A stretch of DNA of 64,000 bases, from assembly GCA_028534125.1 (NCBI GenBank), contig CM052816.1, positions 74,278,001 to 74,342,000 on the forward strand. The letters run 5' to 3'. Within the stretch, counting starts at the first letter, position 1. Every line of letters begins with the position of its first letter. Positions 1,920 to 59,124 of this stretch are shown here, piece after piece. The notes beneath the pieces were generated by a model, which was given only the letters and a program-made list of their open reading frames with translations, ran no database searches and was not told the DNA's origin. The position numbers were made by a program, and so were the translations under genes. The stretch comes from Lama glama. Taxonomy: Eukaryota.

Positions 1920-3042
1920 TTCTAAATAGACATTTCTCTGAAGAAGACATACAGATGGCCAACAGACACATGAAAAGATGTGCCACATCGCTAATTATTA
2001 GAGAAATGCAAATCAAAACTACGATGGGATATCACATTACACCCGTCAGAATGGCCATCATCAGAAAGTCTACATGTGTGACTGAAACATTATGCTGTAC
2101 AACAGAAACTGACCCAACATTGTAAACTGCCTATACTTCAATTAAAAAAAAAAAGATTTTTAATGGGAGAGAGTATAGCTCAAGTGGTAGAGTGCATGCT
2201 TAGCATACATGAAGCCCTGGGTTCAATCCCTGGTACCTCCTCAATAAATAAATAAATAAAACAAACTTAACCCTCCCACCCCAAAAAAAGATTTTTTTAA
2301 AAAGTCTACAAATAATAAATATCGCAGATGGTTTGGAAAAAAGGGAACCCTCCTACACTGTTGGTGAGAATGTAAATTGGTGCAGCCACTGTAGAAAACA
2401 GTCTAGAAGTTCCTTAAAAAACTAAAAATAGAGTTACCATGTGATCCTTCAATCCCACTCCTGGGAATATATCTGGAAAAGATGAAAACTCTAATTCAAA
2501 AAAATACATGCACCCCAGTGTTCACAGCAGCACTATTCACAATAGCCAAGACATGGAAGCAATCTAAATGTCCATCAACAGATGAATGGATAAAGAAGAT
2601 TTGGTATATATACAATAGAGTATTATTCAGCCATAAAAAAAGAATGAAATAATGCTATTTATAGCAACATGGGTGGACCTAAATATTATCATATTAAATG
2701 AAGTCAGACAGAGAAAGACAAATATCATATAATATCACTTATATGTGGAATCTAAAAAATACAAATCAACTTATTTGCAAAACAGAAGCAGACTCACAGA
2801 CATAGAAAACAAACTTATGGTTACCAAAGGGGAAAGGAGAGGGAGAGGAGAAGGGATAAATTAGGGGTATGGGATTAATAGATAGACACTATTGTATATA
2901 AAATAGATGGACAACAAGGATTTATTGTATAACACATGGAACTATATTCAGTACCTTGTAATAACCTATAATGGGAAAGAATCTGAAGCTGTACACCTGA
3001 AACTAACACAATACTGTAAATCAACTATAGTTAAATAAATAA
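1920..3042 (+). mobile_element. LINE-1 3' end (ORF2 C-terminus and 3'UTR) with nested short L1 tail and SINE
   Basis: Classic L1 3' sequence 'gaagacatacagatggccaacagacacatgaaaagatg...'; 'aaagtctaca' is duplicated at ~2065 and ~2301 around the nested insertion. Confidence 0.9.
2165..2280 (+). mobile_element. tRNA-derived SINE (camelid Vic-1-like)
   Basis: A-box 'tagctcaagtgg', B-box 'ggttcaatcc', (aaat)n tail; flanked by repeated 'aaaaaagattttt'. Confidence 0.8.
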
Positions 3043-16195: not shown

Positions 16196-16695
16196 NNNNN
16201 NNNNNNNNNNNNNNNNNNNNNNNNNNNNNNNNNNNNNNNNNNNNNNNNNNNNNNNNNNNNNNNNNNNNNNNNNNNNNNNNNNNNNNNNNNNNNNNNNNNN
16301 NNNNNNNNNNNNNNNNNNNNNNNNNNNNNNNNNNNNNNNNNNNNNNNNNNNNNNNNNNNNNNNNNNNNNNNNNNNNNNNNNNNNNNNNNNNNNNNNNNNN
16401 NNNNNNNNNNNNNNNNNNNNNNNNNNNNNNNNNNNNNNNNNNNNNNNNNNNNNNNNNNNNNNNNNNNNNNNNNNNNNNNNNNNNNNNNNNNNNNNNNNNN
16501 NNNNNNNNNNNNNNNNNNNNNNNNNNNNNNNNNNNNNNNNNNNNNNNNNNNNNNNNNNNNNNNNNNNNNNNNNNNNNNNNNNNNNNNNNNNNNNNNNNNN
16601 NNNNNNNNNNNNNNNNNNNNNNNNNNNNNNNNNNNNNNNNNNNNNNNNNNNNNNNNNNNNNNNNNNNNNNNNNNNNNNNNNNNNNNNNNNNNNNN
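16196..16695. other. Assembly gap (500 N)
   Basis: Run of N. Confidence 1.
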
Positions 16696-19109: not shown

Positions 19110-19492
19110 TGGCAGTGGGTTGAATGGTGGCCTCCCCAAAGACATGTCCATGTCCTAATCCTCAGAACCTTTGAATGTGACCTTATTTGGAACAAGTCTT
19201 TGCAAATGTAACTAAATTAAGGATCTTGAGATGAGGAGATTGTCCTGGACTATCTGGGTGGGTCTCAAATCCAATGACTAGTGTGCCCTTATAGGAGTGA
19301 GGTGGAGGTTTTGACACAGAGGAGGAGGCAAAGGACCATGGTGGCAGAAATTGGAGTCGTGTAACCATGGGTCAAGGAATCCTGACAGCTACCAGAAGCT
19401 GTGAGAGACAAAGAACGATTTCTCCCCCAGGGCATTCAGAGCGGGTACAACACTGCTGACACCTGAATTTCAGGCTTCTGGCCTCCAGAAGT
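19110..19492 (+). mobile_element. MLT1-type MaLR LTR
   Basis: 'gggttgaatggtggcctccccaaagacatgtccatgtcctaatcc...gaatgtgaccttatttgg...ctggcctccagaa'. Confidence 0.8.
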
Positions 19493-19925
19493 GACTTCTG
19501 TCACTGACCAGCGGTGTGATTTTATGCGAAGACGGCCAACTTTTCCTTCTGATGATCTGCCTAAAATCTGATGGAGCATCCCAAGCAGAAGGACCCTGAG
19601 TATCAATGGACATACAGTTCCCCCAAAGGATCAGGCACAAAGGATACTTTGCATCAAAGAGTAACCTTCAAAATAGCAAACGCTATGCTTCAGCCGCTCT
19701 ACCTGGAGTTCTTTAAAAAAGAGACAGACAAACGCAGGAACAAACGATGATAACTTTAATGCTATCCAGTCAACAAAACCACATCAACTTCGGAGATCCA
19801 GCAAGATGATTGGATTTTGGCCTGGATCTCATCACGTCTCAGCTTCTGAAGTAATTTGCAAGCTGAGAAAAAGGCACCGCCCACCCTTGATAGCGTTTTG
19901 TTGTAAACCTAAGCTCCCAGGAGAG

Positions 19926-19932
19926 TATAAAT
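19926..19932 (+). promoter_or_regulatory. TATA box of ANXA2R-like paralogue 1
   Basis: TATAAAT 57 nt upstream of the ATG at 19983; equivalent TATAAAT in paralogue 4. Confidence 0.7.
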
Positions 19933-19982
19933 TCGCCAGGAAAGGGTCCTTGAGAACTATCCTCCTCTCTGCGACCGAAGCG

Positions 19983-20510
19983 ATGGCGCAGAACTTTCCT
20001 CCCTGCGTGCGCGAGGCCTGGGATTCTGCAGCGGAGTCCCAGAAACCGGAGATGCTGCAAGTCTTGAGCTTAGCGGACCTTGCGGACTGGCAACTGCCCT
20101 TCTATCCTAAGCTGGGCCAGCTCTCTTGCTACCAGGAAGACTTGGATTGGGAATGCCTTTCCAGTCCCTGCGGGTTTCTGTGCACTTATTGCCCGAAACA
20201 TGGAGCCCGAGCGCCGAGCATCGGCAGGCGGAGCGCCGGGAGGCCCGCCAGGGGCCCGACGCCCGCGACCCGCTATGGTCCGGAGCCACAGGCGCCCCAA
20301 GAAAAGGCGGTCGCCGCTCCCGCAGCCTCGGTTGGCAGGTGGCGCCGCTTCCTGGGCCGCCTGTTGAAGCCCGAGAACGCTGCCGGCGGGGACCCTTCCA
20401 AGCGTCGCCCTGCTCCTGCCCCCGGGAGGCAGCGGATCCCAAGCAGATTTCGAGGCTGGGGGCGGCGGATCCGACTTGCAGTGGCCCGGAGGACCCGGAG
20501 CTGCGAATGA
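19983..20510 (+). CDS. ANXA2R-like paralogue 1, 175 aa, apparently intact
   Basis: MAQNFPPCVREAWDSA...WQLPFYPKLG...LSSPCGFLCTYCPKH aligns with ANXA2R at 26439; strong Kozak gcgATGG, TATA upstream, AATAAA at 20648-20653. Confidence 0.85.
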   Translation: MAQNFPPCVREAWDSAAESQKPEMLQVLSLADLADWQLPFYPKLGQLSCYQEDLDWECLSSPCGFLCTYCPKHGARAPSIGRRSAGRPARGPTPATRYGPEPQAPQEKAVAAPAASVGRWRRFLGRLLKPENAAGGDPSKRRPAPAPGRQRIPSRFRGWGRRIRLAVARRTRSCE

Positions 20511-20647
20511 GCCCCGAGATTTGAACTGAGCCCCTCACCGCCCCGGACAAGTGATGTTCCAGCCACATCTCTGCGTTTGCTCCATAGAGATGGAAGTCAT
20601 TTGTCTTTAGAATTCTTAGTGAAATTCCTTTTCGGTACTTAATACTT

Positions 20648-20653
20648 AATAAA
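20648..20653 (+). terminator. Polyadenylation signal of paralogue 1
   Basis: AATAAA followed by T/GT-rich sequence; conserved in copies at 39390 and 44309. Confidence 0.7.
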
Positions 20654-23083
20654 GGTGACGAAAAACGATGTAACAGTCCATTTTTCTTTCCCCAGAGGCC
20701 CTGGTTTGTCTTTTGGGGAAGACTAGGCGCACGGGCGGCGGTGGCCAGTACCAGTTCCCGCGCCGCATCCTCGGTCGCCGGGTTTTGCTCGGCACGGGCT
20801 AGACCCTGGGGTTTCCGATGGAAACAGGCATCCTGGGTGACGTGGGGAGGGGACTGGGGTGGAGCGTGGGCTTCCGTCTGACTCCGCGACACCCGCTGGG
20901 CCTCCCAGAACAGCAGATAGGCCGTCCGCAGCCCCAGCTCCGTGGCCCTGGCCCTTCTTGGCCTGGAGTCCTCAGGACCCTCCAGGCATCTGCACGCGGC
21001 TCTGCTGCCGCCTCCACCGCATTTCCCCCACTCCTCCCTGAACTCACCCAGAAGTTCACCCTCCCCTCAGGGACTAGACCCCAGCTAGTCTCCCTAATCC
21101 CTCTGAATCTCCGCAACACTTTAACCAGCAGCACCGGTCAGGAACTGGCTGAGCTGACCTGCTGCCAGATAGCCAGCGTGGAAGTCAAGGGTATAATGAT
21201 CCCGGACTAGTGGCCGGGAAACCAGCGCCCCCTTCCCAGACCCAAGAGGATGGGCCGAGCGCTCCAGGATCCGGCAGTGGGCATGCTCAGAGCAATTCCT
21301 CCTCCAACTGGCTGTCTTTTCCAAGGTGCCAGATTTCTCCATCCAAAAGGGACTTGAGTTAGGGCGTTCACCCCTTCCTGGGGGTGAAAGCCAGCTCTTT
21401 CTGGAGTAAAACGCCTTTCCAATGTGAATCACTGTATCAGGCTCAGCACAGGCCACGACTTAGAATCCTCCCAACTAGACGAAGAGGATATTAATCTGCT
21501 GCTTCTCCTGGGCCTGGCATCCTGAAGCAATTTACACTGAAGGTTAACATCAACATCTAGATTTCAGCACCTTGTTTCTGATGACTTATAGGTCCAGCAT
21601 TTGCCTTCCCTCTCTCCTCCACCTCTCTCTTGGCCCAGACATGCTATTACACTGTGTAGGAGAGTGAAAGTTTGGAACGTCATCTGTCTTGCTGCAAGGG
21701 GTTGGGGTCTGGAAGCAAGAAGTGGGAGCCAAGTTACTCCCCTCCCTACACTGGGTAGAAGCCCGAGTCTGACAACCTCCAGGGACTGATCTGAGGCTCA
21801 GGGGAATGCTCTATTTCTGTGCAGATGGGAACCACTCACTGTGTGGGAGAGAAATACTGAGGACTCAGAGACTGTCTCTGCACAGTAAGTAGTTTGGGAG
21901 TCCCCAAAAAGACTGCCTGGAGTTGACACTTGTGCTCCTCTCTGGCCCAAATTTAGCCCCAGGGAAGAAGAATACTGCAGATCAGGTGTCTGCGTGGAAA
22001 AGTCACAAAAACCCCAGTGTAGGTGGTGATGGGTGCCCACAGGGCAAGGATCTGGAGTTCTGCCCTCTCTGAGACTACCTGGGTGGCTACCTCAGTGCTT
22101 TCTCCTCCAACTTCGTTAGAAACACCCCCTTGAATTCAAGCCCTGTTGCTACAGTCACTGGCTTCCTTGTGTTCCAGTCCCCAGGGCATAGTTTGGGATT
22201 GTGCAGATATGACCATCATTTTTTAAAAAATCATACATTGGAAAACATGTCTGTTCTTTATAATTTCTTGCTTATAGAAGTGGGATTCTGGGTTAAGAGC
22301 ATTCATATTGAAATTTTTAATGCATATTGCCACATTGTCTTTCCAAAGATCCTTTTAAATTCATACACAAAAGTTCTGTTGGGAAGTTACTACTTTACCA
22401 ACAGTAGAACAAATGAAAAATTTTAATGTAGGCCACTATGGTAGTCAAAGTTATGTCATTTTAAAAAATGACACTTTGCATTTCATTGACCTTAATGAAC
22501 CCTGAACTGGGTCCCTGCTCCCCTGTCAGACACAAGCCCACCTCCCATCCCTTTTAATCCTGGCTCCATCCACCCAAATCAATTGCACAGGCAGAGAATA
22601 AGGAAACAGACTTTAATCATTGTGCACAATTGGAATTAACATGAAAAGCACGAATATTCTGAGTACATCTGCAAGAAACATCCTTAAGATAGTATTGATT
22701 CCCTGAAAAGAGATTTCTTATTGAAAAACCTGTCAGTAATTCAGGAATGAAAGGACAATAAAGAATATTCTGCACTACAGAGACCCTGAGGCTCATCCCC
22801 GAGCAAGGCTGGGGCCAGGGGAGAAGTCCAGACAGGCAGAATGAGGGCCTCCACTGGGGTGACTCCGTGACTCCAGTCCAGGGCATGGGTTGAAGGGTTG
22901 CCGTGTGGCAGGGCATAAGGCTGCCATCCTTCCTTACTTTGTGGAGTTCCTGGGTTTCAAGCCTCATTTTTCAGCAGTCTCAGGGGGTGGGGATGGGAGT
23001 GGGTGGGGCTGTCTTGGGATCCTGGGAGGCAATCTGGCTGCTTGTCTGTCCACCTCCGCTGCTGCTGGCATCTCCTGACTGGT

Positions 23084-23437
23084 TCAGGCCCTGTTGAGCT
23101 GCGTGGTCTGTAGCTCTGGCCTCTTCTTGGTGGGACAGTTGTTCCATCCCGGATGAGCCATTGGCTCCTGGGCTTGTGGGTCTCGACAGCGTTTTGGGCT
23201 GCTCTCAACTTGGGGACCGTCTGCATGCTCGGTGCAAGCACGAAGCAGCCTCTCACATGCACCATAGTGCCCGTCCCCGTAGGACTGGGGCATTGGCAGG
23301 AGGGGCGGCTCAGCGCGGGGAAGTTATCCAGAACCCAGGCCCAGGCCTGGTTCTGGGTTCAGGCCCCATGGCATGTGGGGCTCTGGATGTGCCCACCTCC
23401 AAGACAGCTCTTGCAGGGTGGATGCATGGGATTCCAT
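23084..23437 (-). pseudogene. Disrupted copy of the 117-aa divergent ANXA2R-family gene
   Basis: Same 354-nt span as 43026-43379; +1 insertion ~23350 gives TAA at 23324-23326 after 37 aa, then a -1 deletion ~23288; TATA lost; ATTAAA at 22612-22617. Confidence 0.8.
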
Positions 23438-24409
23438 CTCTTCAGCCTTCTTACTGGACTGGGACTAGTTGCCTGTCTAAGCAAAGGGGCAAGTGATTCA
23501 GTCATTTACTGAGTGTGTCTGTCTTGTATAGGACATCAGGAAACCTAAGTTCCAGATAGGTGGGGATAGGCACTCATTTACCTTTCAAATTGCCTTGGAG
23601 CCTCATGGGATAGAGGAGAAAACTGCGTCTTTCTGGGAGGCACTATGGAAATTAAGAGCGGTTTCATTGATGGAGTTAGAGGAGGGGGATGGGAGGAGAG
23701 GAAGTTCCCTGGGGAAAGTTCAGTCCTGGTCGGTTCCACTCCTGCAGGAAAAAACTCTCTACTCAGCAGGCAAAGCTGCCAAATTACACTTCACATGTAG
23801 GTCTAATAATTTAACAGCTCAGAGAGGATTGCCTGATTTTAGAGATGAGGTTCCATGATGGCAGATCCTCGCCAGAATACAAAGCTAGTTTCAGCAGGAG
23901 CTGGATTAAGATACCAGATTTTCATGTAGGCATATCAGGAAGGGAAACAAGTAAAGGAGTGATTAGGTAAGGGTAGGAAAAGGAGAGTGCTTACTTAGAG
24001 TTGTAATATTTCTATTTTTGTCTACAGTAGCTTAGTGGAATCAAAGAGAGATCTCAAGTTTGCCCTGATTTTCATACCTACACGACAAATTGAATTGAGT
24101 GAATGCCATGTTTTTTTTTATCTTGTTGGTAGGACCCCTACCCTATTTTATATGACTATGAATATTCTATCATTAGTGATTCTCATTTCTCTGCTTCCTT
24201 TCTTCCATATAATTTTTCTTGTTAATAACTACTGTACTTTTAATGAGTATTTTGGTAATTTTCAGTGTGGTACTATATAGTATTGTTTTGCATGCCTATA
24301 TATTCAACTTATGTAAAAGCAAATGTGTTCTCTTTAGGCAGTTTAGATAGAAATGAGCACTGGGCAGGGGGAGAGGAAGGGGAAAGGAACAACCCAGAAG
24401 ATAAAAGTG

Positions 24410-39508: not shown

Positions 39509-40050
39509 TCAGCGGAGATGAGGGCTCTTGCGCCGAAAGGCTGCAGGGGAGGCAGCCCAAGTTCTTGGCGACTGCGCATTGGTCCGCTGCCACTTGTCTT
39601 GAGACTTCGAGTGGTGTCTCCCCAGGCCAGGAGGAGGGCGATGCTCCAGATGGCTCTTTGAGGTCAGAGGTCTCGGGATCCAGATTTTGGGTCCTCGATG
39701 TTGGAAGACCAGCCCAGAGAAGCTTTGGGGGCGGGCGGCGGCCGCCTCTTCCTCGGGCGCCTGTGGCTCCTGGCGTGTCGTGGGCTTTGGGTCCGGGGTG
39801 GGCAGCGAGGTTCTCTGCGCTCTGGGTCCGTGTTTGGGGCAGTAAGCGCGCAGAAACCCGCAGGGGGTAGAAAGTAGTTCCCTATTGAAGTTCTGGTTGT
39901 CCCAAGAGAGGTGGCCCAGCTTAGGATAGAAAGGGAGCTGCCATAACTCAGGGTCCACTAAGCTCAAGATTTGCAGCATCTCTGGTTTTCCTGGGGCTTC
40001 TCTGCAGAATCCCAGGCTTCCTGCACGCATTGAGGAAAGTTCTGCTCCAT
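39509..40050 (-). pseudogene. ANXA2R-like paralogue 3, frameshifted (possibly rescued by an alternative ATG)
   Basis: ATG 40050 reads MEQNFPQCVQEAWDSAEKPQ, then a +2 frameshift ~39988 gives TGA at 39964; the other frame continues KPEMLQILSL...WQLPFYPKLG...STPCGFLRAYCPKH; TATA degraded; AATAAA at 39390-39395. Confidence 0.8.
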
Positions 40051-43025
40051 CCCTTCCGCCACCGAGAGGGGGAAAAGTTTTCAGGGATTCCCTTCCTTTT
40101 GAATTATTATTCTGGGCTCTTATGCTTCCAACTAGAGAGTATTAGGGTGGATGGTGCGGTTTTCCTCAGCTTGGTAATTGCTTCAAAAGGCGGGACCTGT
40201 GGAGATTAAGGGAAAATCCAATCATCTTGGATGGGGCTGTTCCAAGCTGAATTGATTTTGTTGATTCAGAGAATTAAAGTTTTTGTGCTGTTGTTGTTTG
40301 TTTTTAAAAGAATGACAGGTAGAGGGGCTCTGTCAAGACAAGTTATTTGGAAGGTTAGTCTTTTATGAAAAGTATCCTAAATGTCTGACCCTTTTAGGGG
40401 AACTGTATATCCACTGATTCTCAGGGCCCTTCTGTTTGGAAAGTACTGTCAGATTTTACCTAGATGATCAGAATGAGACGTTGGCCATCTTTGCATGAAA
40501 TCACACTACTGTCAGTGAGACAAGTCAGACTCACACCCTGGGCTTCTGTTGTGGATTTCTAAGTCAAAACATTTTCAGAATTTTAGTCAACATGTAGGAG
40601 GGGAGGGATCAAGGTCTCGAGAGAGCCAGACACAGACCGTTTGGGTACAAGTTCTATCATTTCTGTAAGACTCAGCTAGTCATCTGGCCTTTCTTGCCTT
40701 CACACTTTTACCTGGACGACAGCTAAAATTTAATGTTTTACAAGGTAGCTTTCATGATTAAATTGGATAACAAAGGCCAAATAATTAGATATCCCAGGCA
40801 GAAAAGAAGTTGTTCAATTACAAATATTATTTTCATTATCATTCTTAGTGAGATGAGCATGGACATAAACATAACATCAATGAATAACAAACCCTAAATG
40901 CTGTCTTTTTGTGTGTGTTTAATCTTAGTGGACCGCTTTTGCCTTCTTGTGTCAAATCGATAGTGAAATTGCATTCCTTTACATCCTTCCTCAGATGTTC
41001 AAACACTCTGTTGGCAAACATGTCAGTGCATCCAAGCCTAGATTTCCTTCATCAGTCATTTATCTATCTAAACAAAGTCAGTTTAATTCAAAGAATTTTA
41101 AATGAGCACGTTTTGACAGCCTGCCGCGAGCAGGGTGCTGTGATGGGTGCTACATACACAGAGCTGTAGAACTGGCTCCTGCTTTGGAAGGTCTCACTTC
41201 TAAGGGGAGAGCAGAGTCCCAGTTAAGAGACCATGAAGACACAGCCAAATATTGTTTCCTATGGTGGTCGGCTTGATGCCAGGAATGAAAACTCTAAAGT
41301 TTAAGATGTTTGAGAGGACTCCACAAAAGCCAGTCTTTTTGCACAAGGTGAGGAGAAAAGACAATGGTAGGGATAAAAGTGAGAAAAAAGGAAACAGAAA
41401 TAAAGAAGACAATCAACATCAAAAAATGAGAAATAAGTAAATAAAGAAAGTGGATTCAAGTATGGACCACACAAGAGGCAGAGGGTTGGAAACTCTGGTC
41501 AAGACAGCCAATAGAGGGAGGTTGAAGGGGTTCGTTGGAGCAACTTGAATCTTTGCAGCTGACTTGGGGGTATGAAGTAATTCAAGCCAGAAAGCTCTGC
41601 TGGGCCAGGTTTAAGGGAAAGACAACAACTCTGTTCCCTTTGAAGTCTCAGCAGTGAGCTTATTGGCTCTGGTGCTGCAGAACCTTCTCAGAGAGTTGTT
41701 TGAACACCACTAATTTCCCCCAGAGGGTCAGGGGCAGCTAGCCTGTGTTACAGCTGCACCAGAAGGAAGCCACTACAGTGAGAACCAGCAATGTGGTCAG
41801 ACTGCAGATGATACCAGTCACCAACAAAGTGGAGATCACCTGATTTCAGACAAGGTCTACCCATTATTACATGCAGTTGTGATGTCTTAATATCTCTTTT
41901 AATCTGCAAAAGTTCCCCATCTCTTTTATTTTTCCCTTTCATTTTTTTTCACAGAAAATTGTATAATAAGCACAATGTCCTACCTATTTTTTTTTAAAAT
42001 ACTTTTCTGAGTATCAAGAATAGAAACATTCCACTGACCCTGTGAGCCAGCAGGGAGCAAACTCATTCTTCACTTTTGGGCATGTGAAACAGCAAGGTGT
42101 CTACCAGGTAGCTACTTTCTCAGGACAAGAATGAGGGGATTTCAAGATGGGAAGGAAGAAAGAGTATTTCAAGGATTCTACAAATGATCATTGAAATTGA
42201 TGTGCAATAATGTAGATGGATTTGAATAAAATCAGTCCATTTCTATACCAACAATAAGTTTTCATCAGTTTTTAGGGAAAAGGGTGGCATAGGAGAATAT
42301 ATATTTATGAGAAGAGGTCACAAGAATACATGTAGGCAGGGATGGGCTTCCCCTGCTGAGAGACAGCAGTGAACTGTTAGGGTCATCGTGTCCTGGCCAC
42401 TCTAGTAGTCAAAGTTATATGTCATTGCTTCACTTTGCATTTGTTTAATCTTATTGAGCCCTGACCTGGGTCCTAGCTCCCCTTTGAGGCACGGGCCCAC
42501 CTCCCCACCCCACCCACTTCGAATCCTGGCTCCACCCACTCAATCAATTGCACAGGCAGAGGATAAGGAAACAGGATTTAATCATTGTTCACAACTGGAA
42601 TACACAAGAAGCATGACAATTCCGAGTAAATCTACTAGAAAGGTTCTTAAGATAGTATAGATTCCACGAAGAGATATTTCTAATTGAAAAACCTGTCAAT
42701 AATCCAGGAAGAAAAGGACAAGTAAGGAATGTTCTGCACCAGAAACTTCAAGGCTCAACCCCTAGCAAGGCTGGGGCCAGGGGTTAAGTCCAGCCAGGTA
42801 GAATGAGGGCCTCCATTGGGGTGACTCAGTGACTCCAGTCCAGGGCATGGGTTGAAGGGTCGCCTTGGGGTAAGCACAAGGCTGTGATCCTTTCCTTGTC
42901 GAGTTCCAGCCTCAGTTTTCAGAAACTTCGGGGTTGGGGTGGGAGGTGGCCTGTCTTGGACTCCTGGGAGGTGATCTGGCCACAAGTCTGTCCACCTCCG
43001 GTGCTGCTGGCATTTCCTGGCTGTT

Positions 43026-43379
43026 TCAAGCCCTGTTGAGCTGCGCGGCCTGTAGCTTTGGCTTCTTCTTGGTGGGACTGTCGCTCCATCCTGGATGAGC
43101 CACTGGCTCCTGGACTTCTGGGTCTCGACAGCGTTTCTGGCTGCTCTCAACTTGGGGACCGTCTGCATGCTCGGTGCAAGCATGAAGCGGCCTCTCACAT
43201 GCACTATAGTGCCCGTCGCCGTAGAACTGGGGGCATTGGCAGGAGGGGCGGCTCAGCGCAGGGAAGTTATCCAGAGCCCAGGCCCAGGCCTGTTCTGGGT
43301 TCAGGCCCCGTGGCATTTGGGGCTCTGGATGTGCCCACCTCCAAGACAGCTCTTCCAAGGTGGATGCGTGAGGTTCCAT
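43026..43379 (-). CDS. Divergent ANXA2R-family protein, 117 aa, apparently intact
   Basis: gcgATGG Kozak; TATAAAA at 43462-43468; ATTAAA at 42577-42582; W13, WALDNFPAL and SACERPLHACTEH have the same spacing as the other family members. Confidence 0.72.
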   Translation of the reverse strand: MEPHASTLEELSWRWAHPEPQMPRGLNPEQAWAWALDNFPALSRPSCQCPQFYGDGHYSACERPLHACTEHADGPQVESSQKRCRDPEVQEPVAHPGWSDSPTKKKPKLQAAQLNRA

Positions 43380-43527
43380 CGCTTCAGTCTTCTCACCAGG
43401 CCAGGACGAGTTGCCTGTCCAAGCAAAGGGAGGAATGATTCAGTTCGGTACTTACTGCAACTTTTATAGTGTCTGTCTTGAACAGGGCGTTGGAAACCCA
43501 AATCCAAATAGGTGGGGATAGACACTC

Positions 43528-43542
43528 ATTTGCATTGCAAAT
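43528..43542 (-). promoter_or_regulatory. Octamer / PORE-like palindrome
   Basis: ATTTGCATTGCAAAT contains a perfect octamer ATGCAAAT on the minus strand, ~60 bp upstream of the TATA box. Confidence 0.6.
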
Positions 43543-45017
43543 TGCCTCGGAGCCTCATGGGGTTGAGCAGGAAAATGCATCTTTCTGGGAGGTGCTAGGA
43601 GAAATTACGAAAGGTTCCGGTGATTAAGTTGATGGAGGGGGTTGGGAAGAGAGCACGATCCCTTGGGAGAGAGGTAGATTCCTGGTCGTTTCAATTTATT
43701 GGAAAAGGCCTCGCTACTTGGGAGGCACCCCTAGGCAAAGTCACCCAGTTATGGAGTAGGAATTTCAAGGAGCACCACCATTCCAAACCCAGAAGCGCTC
43801 GAAGCATCCTGTCACGGCAGGGGAGGCTGGTTTTCGGGCCAGTCCAGGGTCATTATCCCCTTAGCTTCTACGCCAGCTATCTGGCAGCAGGTCAGTTCAG
43901 CCAGTCCCTGGCAGGCGTTGGACAAGAAGGTTGCGGAGAGTCGGAGGAGTAAGGGGCACTTGTTGGGATTAATTATCGCCTGAGGGTAAACTGGAGGAGT
44001 TCAGGGAGGGGTGGGAGGAATGCGGCGGATGCAGCCGCAGAGCCGCGTGCAGATGCTCAGAAGGCGTGCCTGCTGTTCTGGGAGGCCCAGCGCGGGTCGG
44101 AAAGTCAGATGTAAAGGCCACGCTCCACCCCATTCCCTTCCCCAACCCATCCTCCTCAGCCGGTGTGCACGGGAGACCCCGCGCCCAGCAAAGCCCAGAG
44201 ACCAAAGAGCCGGCACCAGCCACCGCCGCCCGGGAGCCTCGTCTTCCCAACAGGCAAACCAGGGACTCTCGGGAAGAATCACGGACTGTGACACCGTTTG
44301 TCGTCAACTTTATTGAGAAGCGAAAGCGCAGTTACTATTTTTGGAGTTCACATTGTGTTAAATGTATGCCTAAGGGAGCGGGCCATTAAAGACTTTGATA
44401 TGGTGGGTACTGTAATTAAATTACATTTTCTTAATGAGGAAAATGAAGCAGAAGGGATCAGCTCACTTCTGGAAGGCACTATTGAAACTCCATGGGTTTT
44501 GATGATTGCATCAAGCAGAGGTAGGGTTGTGGGGCGAGAAGGGTCTAGTTACTGACAATTTCCATAGGATATAGAAAGCCTCTCTGTGTTTCAGACAAGC
44601 CTGGACAAATTACACTCAGTAATTCTCGTATCAGAGCGGCATTGCCTGATTGTAGAGAGTAGATTCCACGAGATTAGATCATAACCCAAGATCACACAGA
44701 TAGTTCCTGCTGGACTGAGAACATAGGTCCTCAAGCATATGCCAGGTAGGGGAATTAGCAAAGGAATAATTAGGCTGGATTGGGAATAGCAAAGACTTGT
44801 GCCTACCTAGAATCGTAATTTTTCTACATTTGTTGACGCTAGATTACCTGAATCAAAGGAACATTCAAAATTGCTATGTCTTTCATACCTAAAGACAACT
44901 GGGTTGAGTTAATGTCACATTTTCTATAGTGGTTTTTGCTGACCCCTATCCTCTTTTAGGTAATTATGTGTATTCTATTCTTAGTTATTCCCCTTATTTG
45001 CTTTCCCTCTTCCACTG

Positions 45018-45517
45018 NNNNNNNNNNNNNNNNNNNNNNNNNNNNNNNNNNNNNNNNNNNNNNNNNNNNNNNNNNNNNNNNNNNNNNNNNNNNNNNNNNN
45101 NNNNNNNNNNNNNNNNNNNNNNNNNNNNNNNNNNNNNNNNNNNNNNNNNNNNNNNNNNNNNNNNNNNNNNNNNNNNNNNNNNNNNNNNNNNNNNNNNNNN
45201 NNNNNNNNNNNNNNNNNNNNNNNNNNNNNNNNNNNNNNNNNNNNNNNNNNNNNNNNNNNNNNNNNNNNNNNNNNNNNNNNNNNNNNNNNNNNNNNNNNNN
45301 NNNNNNNNNNNNNNNNNNNNNNNNNNNNNNNNNNNNNNNNNNNNNNNNNNNNNNNNNNNNNNNNNNNNNNNNNNNNNNNNNNNNNNNNNNNNNNNNNNNN
45401 NNNNNNNNNNNNNNNNNNNNNNNNNNNNNNNNNNNNNNNNNNNNNNNNNNNNNNNNNNNNNNNNNNNNNNNNNNNNNNNNNNNNNNNNNNNNNNNNNNNN
45501 NNNNNNNNNNNNNNNNN
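45018..45517. other. Assembly gap (500 N)
   Basis: Run of N. Confidence 1.
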
Positions 45518-45686: not shown

Positions 45687-45962
45687 CTAGGCAGACAGGT
45701 TTAGATCTGGTTCTAAAGTGGTCTGGGCTCTATACAAGTGTCTGTGCCCAGGGCAGGCCCAGCTCAATAGCCCACATGGCGTGGAAAGCAGTTCCCAGTT
45801 GAAATGTGGATTGCCCCACCAGGGCTCCCCCAGTCTGGGGTAGAAAAGGAGTGGCCATGGCCCCAAATCTTCTGAACTCAGAGACAAAGACACCTGGGGT
45901 TCCAGTGCTATCTCCACAGAATTCCAAGCCTGCTTCACACAGAGGCAAAAAAGCTGGGGCAT
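45687..45962 (-). pseudogene. ANXA2R-like paralogue 4, 91 aa, probably nonsense-truncated
   Basis: MPQLFCLCVKQAWNS...GPWPLLFYPRLGE...LLSTPCGLLSWACPGH; TATAAAT at 46044-46050; ANXA2R-like frame continues past the TAG; 3' end falls in the gap. Confidence 0.75.
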
Positions 45963-55237: not shown

Positions 55238-57119
55238 CTCATACTGTTCTCGCTTTGCAGGTGAAAAATCTATTGACACAAAGTAAGTGTTGGGACTCAT
55301 ATCTGCACCCAGATAGTTCAAATCCCAGAACTCGGGATCTTGTAATTTTGCTCATTTGCACTTAAAAAAAATCTATGTCCTTTTATTGGGATGTTCAAAA
55401 GTAGAATATGAAAATAGGTAGATGTAAGTTGATCATAGACAGAGAGGGATTAGTGTTTTTTCACCAGCCTGTCCTCTCCACTGCCCAGCCCAGACACCAG
55501 GTTGCAGCCTCTTCCTAGCATAAGGCTGCTTGGAGATCTGAATTCTACTCCTGCCCCACTCACTAGTACTGTGAACTAAACTTCCCGCAAAAATCAGACA
55601 ATTCCTACCTGGAAGAGATGACGATGAGTAGATACCATGAACATTCTAGAGCAGACTTTCCCTGATGGTTAGAAGCTGTGAATAACTGCTCCCAAATGAT
55701 CTTTCTATATCAGGTCCTCTCCTGAAGTTTTTCCAACTCTGCTTCTCCTCCAGCCCATACTACATTCAATTCAACTTTGAAAAGTATCATCTAAGATAGT
55801 CTAATTTCCCACTATTCTGCCCCCCCCTTTTTTTTTGGATTTCTGATACCCTAAGAGGCCTGGAACAAACTTCACTTATCACTTAGCTCAGACACACTGC
55901 TTCTTCAGGTCTAGAGATGAAGCTATGACACAGCCATGCTTTTCCTGTAGGAATCAGGCTTGGAATTCTGCAGTTGAGGAGGCAGAGCTTCAGGTGTCAT
56001 GAGCCCTATTCCAGGAATCTTTCAGGCCAGTTGGCACTACCTTATTACCCCCTTTCAACCACAGCTCTGAATGCTACTTGGACTTACTCCACTGTCTTTG
56101 AGGGTTGTCAGAATGGGTGTTGGCATTGATCTTCAGTGACATTGATTTAAAATGCCAGAATTGATGGAATCTAGGGGAAAATTGGAACATTCCATTATGG
56201 AAACATTGTTACTAGTTGCAATTCCTGGAGTTGCTTTCATAGGGAAAACCAAAAGCAGAAAATTAAAAATAAAAATGTGGATTACACTGTCCAAGTCTTG
56301 TCTCCATTACACTTTATATACCTGAAGAACACTCATTTAAAACTCTCCATTTTTACTTGTTCTTTTCCTCTAGATCAGTTTGCCTAGTGATAGACAAATC
56401 ACTAAACAGTGAATCTTCTAAATAGGTTGCTGGAAGCCAATGTACCATTTTTACTTCTTCCAATCCTTTCGTTTACTGAGCAGTTTTCACTGACAGTTCT
56501 TATCAACATTTTAAAGAATGCTGTATTTGTGTCTGTCTCAACTGTTTTTCTGCTGCTGCCAGTAAATTTGAAATAAAAAATTCCTAGGAAAAGAAAAGAT
56601 CAAGCCTGACCCTTTACATAATGTTAAATGCTGATGGTACAAAATGCAGAGAATGAGCTTAATTTTGTAAATATATGTATTACATGCATTTCCACAAATA
56701 CACATATATATGAGAAAAATAAGTGAAAATGTTAACAGTGGTACCTGTTGAAATTATAGGTGGTTTATTTTTATTCTGTTTTCATTTTCCATGTTCTTCA
56801 TGAGTGCATACTATTTCTGTAATATTAAAAAGGGTTACCACAGGGATTAATTCATATGCATTAAATATATAACAAATAACTTTAGGAAATAGACCTGCAA
56901 ATTCCAACTGTGCCTCTCACCAGCTGTTGATTTTGGGTAAATTAAAACGATCCAACGTCTCCTAGCAGGCTTTCTCACTTGATACACGTGTATGATGCAT
57001 TTCTTCCTAGTGAGGCTAAAATGATACCACATGGAGGGACTTGCGTACATTCAGTAGTGATTCTTTGCTACCGAGAGAAACCAGCTGAGTCCAACCCTTA
57101 ATCCAAGGTGGTGTTGATA

Positions 57120-57144
57120 TACAGGCGCCTCCCGCGGGGCTCCC

Positions 57145-57198
<54 letters not shown>

Positions 57199-58120
57199 GG
57201 CGCAGGCGCGGGCCTGGCCAGGGCTCCGGCGTCTTCTCCCCGGGACCGAGCCGCCGCTTCCTTTCGCCTCCGCACCTCGGTTGTTGGGTGACATCCTCTC
57301 CCCTCTGGCCTCGGAAGGATGAAGTTCCATCTCTTCCCCAGGCTCCGCGAGTTCTCTGTGGGTACAGTGGGGAGACGGGGGTCGTAGCGGGTGACTAGGA
57401 ACCAGATGGCGACCTCCATTCTTCCAGGTAGGCTTGGGGGTTGGCTCGCAAGGCGGGGGTGGAGGGCACAGGGTGGGCGGCCCGAAACCACAGCAGGAAG
57501 CCTCGGGGTTGGGGTGAGGGGCGACGCTAATAGGTCTAAGAAGGGCCCAGGAAGTTCCTTCATTCTCAAAGGGCTCCAGCCAAGAGCACCTGGAACCGGC
57601 GGGTGGCAGAGCCACGTCCAGGATCGGGGGGTGGGGGGGCTGGGGCAAGGCGAGCGGGCAGTGGAGCCGGCTAGGTCCCCGCCGCCTGGTCCCAGCGCGC
57701 TCAGGACCCCAGCGCAGCCCCTTCCTCTGGTTTTTCCCGCTCCTCGTCCGCCCCCACTTCCTCCCATTCCTTTCATCACCACCCAGATGCCTGCAGCCGC
57801 CAGCCTCTCCTCCCCAGGGGCCCACAGAAGCGACAGCAGCGCCGCAGGAGTGAGGGAGGGGGCCCGCTTTTTTGCGGCAGCCCGGGGTCTGCGCTGGCCC
57901 TGGATGCAAGGGTGGGCTCCGCGCTAGCCGTTTCCCCCAAATCGCCGCGGATTTGCGGCCACACGGGGCCACCTAGTGGACAGCGAGTGTCAGAGCACGA
58001 GGAGGCCTGAGGGAGGGTGACCCGGGTGAATCCGAGGCACACCAGGCTTTCCGAGAAAGGGGCAGCTTCTCGCGCGCGCAGCTTCCGGCCCGAAGTAAAT
58101 CTCTGCGGGAGCTTGGGATA
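57120..58120. promoter_or_regulatory. CpG island / probable promoter
   Basis: ~1 kb GC- and CpG-rich; candidate splice donor CAG|GTAGGC ~57427; CTCF-like GGCCACCTAGTGGA at 57967. Confidence 0.8.
57144..57213. repeat. (GGCGCG)n hexamer repeat, ~11 units
   Basis: Seen directly; two GGCGCA variants near the 3' end. Confidence 0.95.
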
Positions 58121-59124
58121 TTTACCTTCTTCCTTCCCCACTGTCTCCTTTATTCTCTTCCAATGAGCATGTTCCTTTCTCGGATCGCTCTCCTTGGCAT
58201 TTTCCATCCTCCCTGGAAAAGGATGCTGCGGGAAAGGAACATTCAGGTTGTTTAACATTCATAAGTTGGAGTCTGAGGAAAGTTCACCTTGAAGCTATTG
58301 AGACTTGAGCCTTCAGGCAGTGTAAAATTTGCAAAATTTTCTTTTTTAAAAGATACCCCTCGACCCCCACCAACTTATATAAACCTGCTCCACAAAACCT
58401 TGATGCGCCCTTGGCTGGAGTCGTTGGAGGTAAGAGTGTGTTGGGAGATTTTAAAAGATGCACGTGTAATAGAGATGCTGGAGAGCGAGAAGGAACTGCA
58501 GTGTCCTGATGGGGAAGGGGGTCACTTTAGACTAAACGCAAAGCTCAAGATGACCCAGAGAAGCCCGTGTGCCGCCGGCTTTCCTTTCTCTCTCGACTGT
58601 TTCAGGTCCTCCCTTGTGCTTGTAATTAACAATACTGATTTATACTTAAAAATTTTGCTAAGTGAAATCTTACCTTAAGTGTACTTGTCAAGGGAACTTT
58701 TGGAGGTGATAGATATATTTGTGACATAGATTGTGGTTTTTACTAATGTATACCTGTCTCCAAACTGATCAAGTTGCTTACATTAAATAGGTATGCTTTT
58801 TGTATGTCATTCATACCTCAATAAAATGGATTCTAGAAAAGCTACATCACTGGTCTAATAACTCTTCCTGTATCAACCATTTAAAATGTAGTTATATTGG
58901 CAGAAGTGAAAATTCAGAGACCGTGTTAGTAAAACTTTTTTAGAAACTTTACTAAAGGACTTCAATTTTTCTCGGACAAATTGCATCCAATCTTAATGTA
59001 AGGACCTAGAATTCTAGCCCCAGGCAGCATCTTTTGGGAGGAGGGCAGGAGAGAGAATTATCTCCACAAGTACTAGTTTAGCAGTCTTACCTGTATTCAT
59101 GTGTCATGAGTTGTGACACCCCAT

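Follow-up and report, generated by a model that had tools for sequence, protein, structure and literature searches.

The ANXA2R gene cluster of the llama holds an ORF of 117 codons (P0001) that matches no known protein family. From the letters of the window (the whole stretch of 64,000 nt analysed) a sequence-only reading had described it as a cryptic ANXA2R family member with a complete gene layout and an ending that resembles the nuclear localization signal (NLS) of SV40, and had proposed a small nuclear protein, in conflict with the 'receptor' label of the family. Is this ORF a functional gene, how is it related to ANXA2R, and what could its product do? ANXA2R is the protein described as RESIST, which, according to the part of PMC12310523 available to us, binds CNOT1 and CNOT9 of the CCR4-NOT complex directly and is predicted to use the tryptophan pockets of CNOT9 together with a C-terminal helix on CNOT1. 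The same part reports that CCR4-NOT still co-precipitates with RESIST lacking its C-terminus, while activity on Ifnb1 is lost, and names Gm21188/Gm36079 as the mouse RESIST genes (PMC12310523).

Results

Gene layout and transcript ends

The 117-aa ORF was confirmed on the minus strand at 43379–43026 (Table 1), and both peptides quoted in the sequence-only reading were right; the one used for comparison comes from the ORF at 19806–20510. The gene layout also held up: the TATAAAA box (43468–43462), a strong Kozak context (GAAGCGATGG, with G at −3 and G at +4) and an ATTAAA signal (42582–42577) are all present, and their use is supported by retrocopies. No further ATG was found between the TATA box and the start codon.

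A DNA search of the genome detected two dispersed copies of the gene. The first, L011, consists of 243 nt of 3′ UTR at 85% identity and ends in A14 12–13 nt below ATTAAA; its 17-nt target-site duplication contains 3 mismatches. The second, L012, is collinear over the full length and decayed; its end is A-rich and its 12-nt target-site duplication is perfect. Its start corresponds to window position ~43441, which lies ~27 nt downstream of where the TATA box begins. By these hallmarks both are processed retrocopies, and they place the ends of an intronless mRNA at ~43441 and ~42564. Heritable retrocopies originate in the germ line or early embryo. Hence, the P0001 gene or an ancestral copy was transcribed and polyadenylated there. 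The source of L011 is ambiguous between the P0001 gene and a paralogue in the window (22 versus 16 diagnostic sites).

The deepest contig of run X1, which is guessed to be RNA, has a depth of 55 (2–20 in six further pieces) and stops at 42564, followed by five letters that do not align. This end fits a polyadenylated transcript, with the proviso that contigs cannot prove ends and that X1 is RNA only by guess. Run X2 covers upstream DNA, apparently includes the paralogue, and is therefore uninformative on expression; X13 and X16 gave 0 reads and likewise carry no information. We conclude that a real, single-exon, intronless and protein-coding gene at this locus is strongly supported.

Table 1. 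Positions in the window of the P0001 gene, its parts and its relatives
Feature	Position	Strand	Basis or remark
P0001, 117-aa ORF, single exon	43026..43379	minus	ORF list and homologues
Conserved core, residues 20–47, PxMPxGLNxEQAWAWALDNFxALSxxSC	43239..43322	minus	alignment, hhalign, model
KRCR, residues 82–85, family-wide basic motif	43125..43136	minus	K-R-x-R in 30/39 members
Tail attributed to a frameshift, residues 95–117	43029..43097	minus	tblastn; 6/39 aligned members
Probable remnant of ancestral C-terminal frame, out of frame, partly 3′ UTR	42916..43095	minus	tblastn, HMM
ATTAAA signal and poly(A) site (42565/42564)	42564..42582	minus	L011 end, X1 contig
TATA box, TATAAAA	43462..43468	minus	transcription start ~43441 from L012
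PORE-like palindromic octamer element, putative	43528..43542	minus	sole match in the window with ≤ 1 mismatch
DUX-like site CAACTTAATCA	43621..43631	minus	one mismatch to TAAYYYAATCA; 252 nt above ATG
Broken paralogue, P0001 subfamily	23084..23437	minus	+1 and −1 frameshifts, internal stop
ANXA2R-family neighbour, short 91-aa subfamily	45687..45962	minus	PF15721 E 2.6e-18; tree
ANXA2R-family neighbour, second subfamily, frameshifted near start in assembly	39509..40050	minus	PF15721
ANXA2R-family copy, second subfamily	19983..20510	plus	PF15721; tree
Canonical ANXA2R/RESIST-type copy with C-terminal helix segment	26439..26933	plus	PF15721 E 3.1e-27

Remote homology to ANXA2R

All five genome-wide matches to PF15721, the ANXA2R family of Pfam, fall in the window, and four window ORFs other than P0001 match it. 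'Cryptic' was a fair word for P0001, which has no Pfam family at E ≤ 10 whereas 4/4 of these other copies match PF15721. The cut-off of PF15721 (27 bits) was missed by P0001 and by 23/23 clade members, with no Pfam match at E ≤ 10; 4 of 30 further family proteins matched, solely in fused ANXA2R segments.

The claimed register with ANXA2R amounts to 10 identities in 38 ungapped positions (score 34), which 1% of 300 shuffles equal (p = 0.01). Against the other three window copies, the same test gave 0/300 shuffles, p = 0.04 and p = 0.17. By itself the register is thus weak, yet it exceeds chance. Local alignment of P0001 with the four window copies gave p = 0.001, 0/1000, 0.031 and 0.052, and the best such alignment is collinear starting from Met1.

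A comparison of profiles had been proposed as a check. One pairwise hhalign comparison was made between 39 clade members (A3, picked from the homologue hits and their cluster members, with fused models and fragments excluded) and 33 ANXA2R rows (A4, 30 search hits plus three window copies). It returned a probability of 95.4 and an E value of 1.8e-8 over 102 columns; with a single sequence, the values were 56% and 1.1e-4. Identity between the clade and ANXA2R in this alignment is 15%, and the core residues differ at most positions. On the ANXA2R profile, 24/39 clade members outscored the best of 1170 shuffles (P0001 at 18.4 bits versus 10.0); the 15 that failed to do so are mostly rodent-like. 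In the reverse test, the clade profile scored 17/33 ANXA2R rows above all shuffles. For the 330 nt upstream of P0001, similarity to three of the four ANXA2R-type promoters exceeds a genomic null (p ≤ 0.005), the fourth giving p = 0.07. From these comparisons of sequence, the view of P0001 as a true but distant ANXA2R paralogue is strongly supported.

No plain ANXA2R was among the 36 proteins returned by a clade-profile search of 1.84 billion representatives, which indicates that the divergence is deep and that the binding partner may have changed. The earlier term 'family member' stands for the remote homology found by hhalign, not for a mere divergent copy: P0001 belongs to an ancient clade of its own that fails the Pfam test. 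Like ANXA2R/RESIST, P0001 lies in the same cluster, has a single coding exon, related promoter DNA and no transmembrane (TM) helix, and is collinear over the N-terminal ~75–100 residues with W34, L36, F39 (Y in ANXA2R), P40, L42 and C61 in register. Unlike them, its clade falls below Pfam detection and stands apart in the tree (100/100), and it is separated from ANXA2R both by an invariant EQAWAWA helix and by a conserved KRxR.

An unnamed clade with an invariant core

The single-protein search gave 22 relatives among 24 candidates, and the profile search gave 68 among 8000 scored. Conservation had been put forward for checking in other Laurasiatheria; the homologues reach well past that group, into elephant, primates and rodents. 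Named members come from reindeer, ibex, sheep, elephant seal, flying fox, two New World monkeys, cotton rat, mole-rat, six felids and Asian elephant, and all carry the database labels 'hypothetical' or 'uncharacterized'. Known entries with the same core motif are XP_049719067/LOC126064259 (elephant), LOC122226845 (lion), CAI9156411 (reindeer) and CapIbe_017697 (ibex), for which the sources draw no connection to ANXA2R. No paper on the clade was found in the part of the literature searched.

Across the 39 aligned rows W32, W34 and A35 are invariant, and P20, P23, E29, Q30, D37, N38, F39, L42, S46, C47, K82 and R85 are at least 90% conserved. The core, with its signature EQAWAWALDNF, lines up with the ANXA2R core W-x-L-x-x-Y-P-x-L; of the longer, near-invariant ANXA2R pattern D..W-x-L-x-x-Y-P-x-L-G the clade keeps W, L, P and L, replaces Y by F, and has Q and S for D and G. 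In a tree of the N-terminal region (98 columns, unrooted, elephant member left out), the 39 clade rows split from the 33 ANXA2R rows on a long branch with support 100/100, and the ANXA2R side forms three subfamilies. Because the elephant has both a clade member and a canonical ANXA2R, the split between the clade and RESIST probably predates the placental radiation.

Gene models of seal and sheep fuse the clade member with ANXA2R neighbours in the same order as in the window, which suggests that the gene order around P0001 is conserved. Neighbouring accessions lie on one chromosome in reindeer (P0006/P0060/P0063) and ibex (P0046/P0077). The data suggest that the clade has expanded in tandem in ruminants, and the rodent-like as well as the primate-like rows appear to be multicopy too.

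An identity with mouse Tcstv/DUF1438 was considered and rejected: there was no PF07270 match in 23 + 30 family proteins and none over the cut-off genome-wide. The Tcstv genes presumably adjoin the Resist genes on mouse chromosome 13. They are small, multicopy 2-cell genes (DUF1438, PF07270) expressed in the early embryo and located on mouse chromosome 13 (PMC4728397). The likeness consists in small multicopy genes; the P0001 clade lacks DUF1438 and is a different family.

Constraint on the ORF

Selection at the DNA level was estimated from one pair, P0001 and L005, the single outside locus with DNA (metagenome scan). The dN/dS of 0.54 for this one pair indicates weak constraint. A single indel, of 6 nt and in frame, lies in the ORF, compared with 18 in the 3′ UTR, of which 12 are not multiples of three. 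The synonymous sites of the core are conserved too (dS 0.09, 5 differences in 102 nt).

That last figure would suit a transcribed element that is non-functional or acts as RNA, whose ORF persists through slow decay and gene conversion, as would the broken paralogue in the window, the variable C-termini and the fact that the sequence is unannotated or 'hypothetical' in most sources. Such an element would not be expected to keep W-x-W-A invariant from Afrotheria to rodents, with only conservative swaps (L/M) around it, or to have its indels avoid the ORF and not the UTR, and we consider it very improbable.

The broken paralogue is 92% identical to P0001 in the ORF versus 79–84% in the flanks, which suggests that constraint or conversion acted on it until recent times. 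The two frameshifts cancel each other out yet have a stop between them, and a 12-nt deletion takes out its TATA box.

A C-terminal tail gained by frameshift

The NLS-like ending noted earlier, PTKKKPKL, is present (residues 102–109, 43076–43053). Aligned by tblastn, non-artiodactyl members follow P0001 in frame −3 to residue 94 and then continue in frame −2 (43095–42916) at 39–56% identity; an HMM detects the remnant of this ancestral C-terminal frame with E 8.5e-10. L012 is still in the old frame and is thus older than the shift, whereas the new frame and its stop are common to L005 and the broken paralogue. These alignments strongly support a 1-nt deletion near 43095 that would have put the C-terminus in a new frame throughout the artiodactyls. 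In that frame the ancestral Q-E-E-A codons are read as K-K-K/R-P.

Every named carrier among the 6/39 rows with the new tail is an artiodactyl. Tail and stop are retained in camelid-like and ruminant sequences with a dN/dS of 0.8 (23 codons, one pair), and the tail was lost again by frame shift in some ruminant copies (P0007, P0008, P0014). The NLS-like ending thus appears to be an artiodactyl-only frameshift product under little constraint, not an ancestral feature. The classical monopartite NLS of the SV40 type follows the consensus K-K/R-x-K/R. Both KKPK (105–108) and KRCR (82–85) of P0001 fit this pattern. Unlike an SV40-type signal, the tail motif arises from old codons that are read in a new frame, so that its likeness to SV40 would be a by-product of the frameshift and no proof of an NLS. 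The internal KRxR seems to be the older basic motif, and many non-artiodactyl members end in RPRKLLKT or KRLKT. Whether such motifs bias the product to the nucleus is, to us, an even call.

These observations bear on the idea nearest to the sequence-only reading, a neofunctionalised nuclear regulator whose WAWA helix would bind some nuclear protein outside CCR4-NOT, such as a cofactor of chromatin or transcription, and whose basic motifs would be genuine import signals. A KRxR in 30/39 members, the basic ends of many non-artiodactyl members and the gain of another basic motif in artiodactyls would agree with it, as would the long branch that separates the clade from every ANXA2R subfamily at 15% identity with a mostly different core. 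Set against this, the Pfam, PDB sequence, Foldseek and Atlas searches suggest no partner, and the tail is weakly constrained and was lost in three ruminant copies. Moreover, a 13-kDa protein is small enough to pass through nuclear pores by itself. We consider a nuclear regulator rather unlikely.

Predicted structure and comparison with RESIST

AlphaFold2 predicted a mostly disordered P0001 (mean pLDDT 58.9), with pLDDT > 90 for residues 21–40 only and a helix at 28–37. No structural relative was found by Foldseek (two matches, E ≥ 8) or by sequence in the PDB (one match, E 2.2), and an ESM Atlas search gave no usable match. A reading of the WAWA helix as a ubiquitin-interacting motif was dropped, as there is no Pfam match and the serine of that motif is missing.

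A TM segment was not found in P0001 by hydropathy or in the AlphaFold2 model, which lacks a long helix; there is no hydrophobic segment, the highest 19-residue Kyte–Doolittle mean being 0.05. For ANXA2R itself, the part of PMC12310523 available to us reports that no TM helix is predicted and that binding to ANXA2–S100A was not robust. A cell-surface annexin-2 receptor, for which nothing speaks beyond the database label of the relatives, is effectively refuted as a reading of P0001. The sequence-only reading was thus right that this is no receptor, although the conflict with the family label that it pointed out had already been resolved in print, as far as that source goes (PMC12310523).

The clade differs from RESIST in having no C-terminal helix of the CNOT1 type. 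A pattern search for the GCLEWI-type C-terminal segment, which probably corresponds to helix 168–177 of mouse RESIST, found it in 0/39 clade members versus 15/33 ANXA2R rows. Lacking two defining features, P0001 is neither a PF15721 member nor RESIST; it belongs to an unnamed, placental-wide paralogue clade.

The same absence weighs on the idea of an immune, interferon-linked paralogue that acts like RESIST in somatic cells, its germ-line transcription being incidental, since this is the segment that RESIST needs for stabilisation of Ifnb1. The position of P0001 inside the ANXA2R cluster is in its favour, together with the interferon induction of human RESIST (part of PMC12310523), the antiviral expansion of ANXA2R in horseshoe bats (as given in part of the review PMC13500052) and the tandem copies and turnover in ruminants. 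Expression in immune cells, SP140 repression or interferon induction is a trait of RESIST; no sequencing run of known tissue covers the P0001 gene. Retrocopies and DUX-like sites indicate germ line or embryo instead, and we regard an immune role as distinctly unlikely.

Promoter elements

The TATA box is kept in L005. The putative element at 43528–43542 is named PORE-like after its palindromic octamer consensus; it has two mismatches in L005 and two in the paralogue and is a weak lead at most. At the aligned position, L005 has an exact DUX-like site, and such sites (≤ 1 mismatch) occur in 5/6 cluster promoters versus 10/179 background bins, the five promoters representing at most three independent groups. 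As far as the available parts of the sources go, TAAYYYAATCA is the DUX consensus (PMC3616921) and promoters of genome activation are enriched in DUX motifs (PMC8990217). Together, the DUX-like site and the retrocopies make expression in the early embryo a fair lead.

Surroundings of the gene

Within the cluster, window 19492–24207 and 39735–45014 form a segmental duplication that has been rearranged. Inverted matches link 19492–20317 to 40527–39735 and 20645–21326 to 44317–43730; direct matches link 22431–23736 to 42395–43692 and 23819–24207 to 44631–45014. Proteins of the 91-aa subfamily from other mammals (P0256, P0259) agree with the window copy in length and in where they end; this subfamily, too, is unnamed and lacks a CNOT1-type helix, and in the window an old C-terminal frame seems to run on beyond the stop. 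Compared with the intact and otherwise nearly identical P0252 of Camelus ferus, the copy at 40050–39509 is frameshifted near 39990, through either a true lesion or an assembly error, and its listed 173-aa ORF begins at an out-of-frame ATG. A weak ANXA2R N-terminal remnant, possibly a decayed copy, lies at 55823–56050 on the plus strand (tblastn E about 0.05, HMM E 0.04). Gaps of 500 N occur at 45018–45517, between the P0001 gene and the 91-aa neighbour, and at 16196–16695; the short contigs L015 and L016 repeat the flank of the former, so further copies could be hidden. The GC-rich stretch at 57000–58300, which contains a low-complexity repeat, is probably the CpG-island promoter of a neighbouring gene. 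In L012, a tandem repeat of ~55 nt (2290–2445, reverse strand) starts just below the retrocopy.

Discussion

We hold the following to be very probable: a real gene, its homology to ANXA2R, a separate clade, the mRNA ends, past transcription in the germ line or early embryo, and a tail born by frameshift. The P0001 locus would then be a TATA-driven, intronless gene of an unnamed RESIST paralogue clade, with past transcription in the germ line or early embryo. It is conceivable, at somewhat less than even chances, that a DUX-family factor turns the gene on around genome activation. The product is probably a disordered protein that acts via one tryptophan-rich helical docking motif, residues 20–47. 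By descent from RESIST, this motif might bind CCR4-NOT via the tryptophan pockets of CNOT9; we regard this step as doubtful, because the parts of PMC12310523 and of the preprint PMC11838211 available to us do not name the residues with which RESIST binds and because the divergence is deep. CNOT9 of the llama genome is a multi-exon gene with separate exons, and a scan of viral contigs found no intronless relative. With no CNOT1-binding helix, the product would be a partial binder or decoy and not a stabiliser of IFNB1. Overall, we moderately favour a functional small docking-motif protein of the P0001 clade with expression in germ line or embryo, the partner being the weak link.

A wider proposal, unlikely as a whole, is that placentals carry multicopy, DUX-activated and RESIST-derived microproteins that have escaped annotation, the primate and rodent loci being treated as non-coding. 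Their tryptophan helix would tune deadenylation on CCR4-NOT in germ cells or at genome activation, and the frameshift tail of artiodactyls would serve for import to the nucleus.

The 2025 description of RESIST presented it as an interferon regulator that inhibits CCR4-NOT and has a single gene in humans. The llama locus holds at least four old subfamilies, one of them invisible to Pfam and unnamed, yet conserved across placentals. It offers in W32, W34 and F39 a short motif for locating the part of RESIST that docks on CCR4-NOT, and in its peptide tail a dated example of a signal-like peptide that appears to have been born by frameshift. It is also a candidate connection between CCR4-NOT and mRNA control in the germ line or early embryo. 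If the primate members include a human gene, the human annotation would miss a coding gene.
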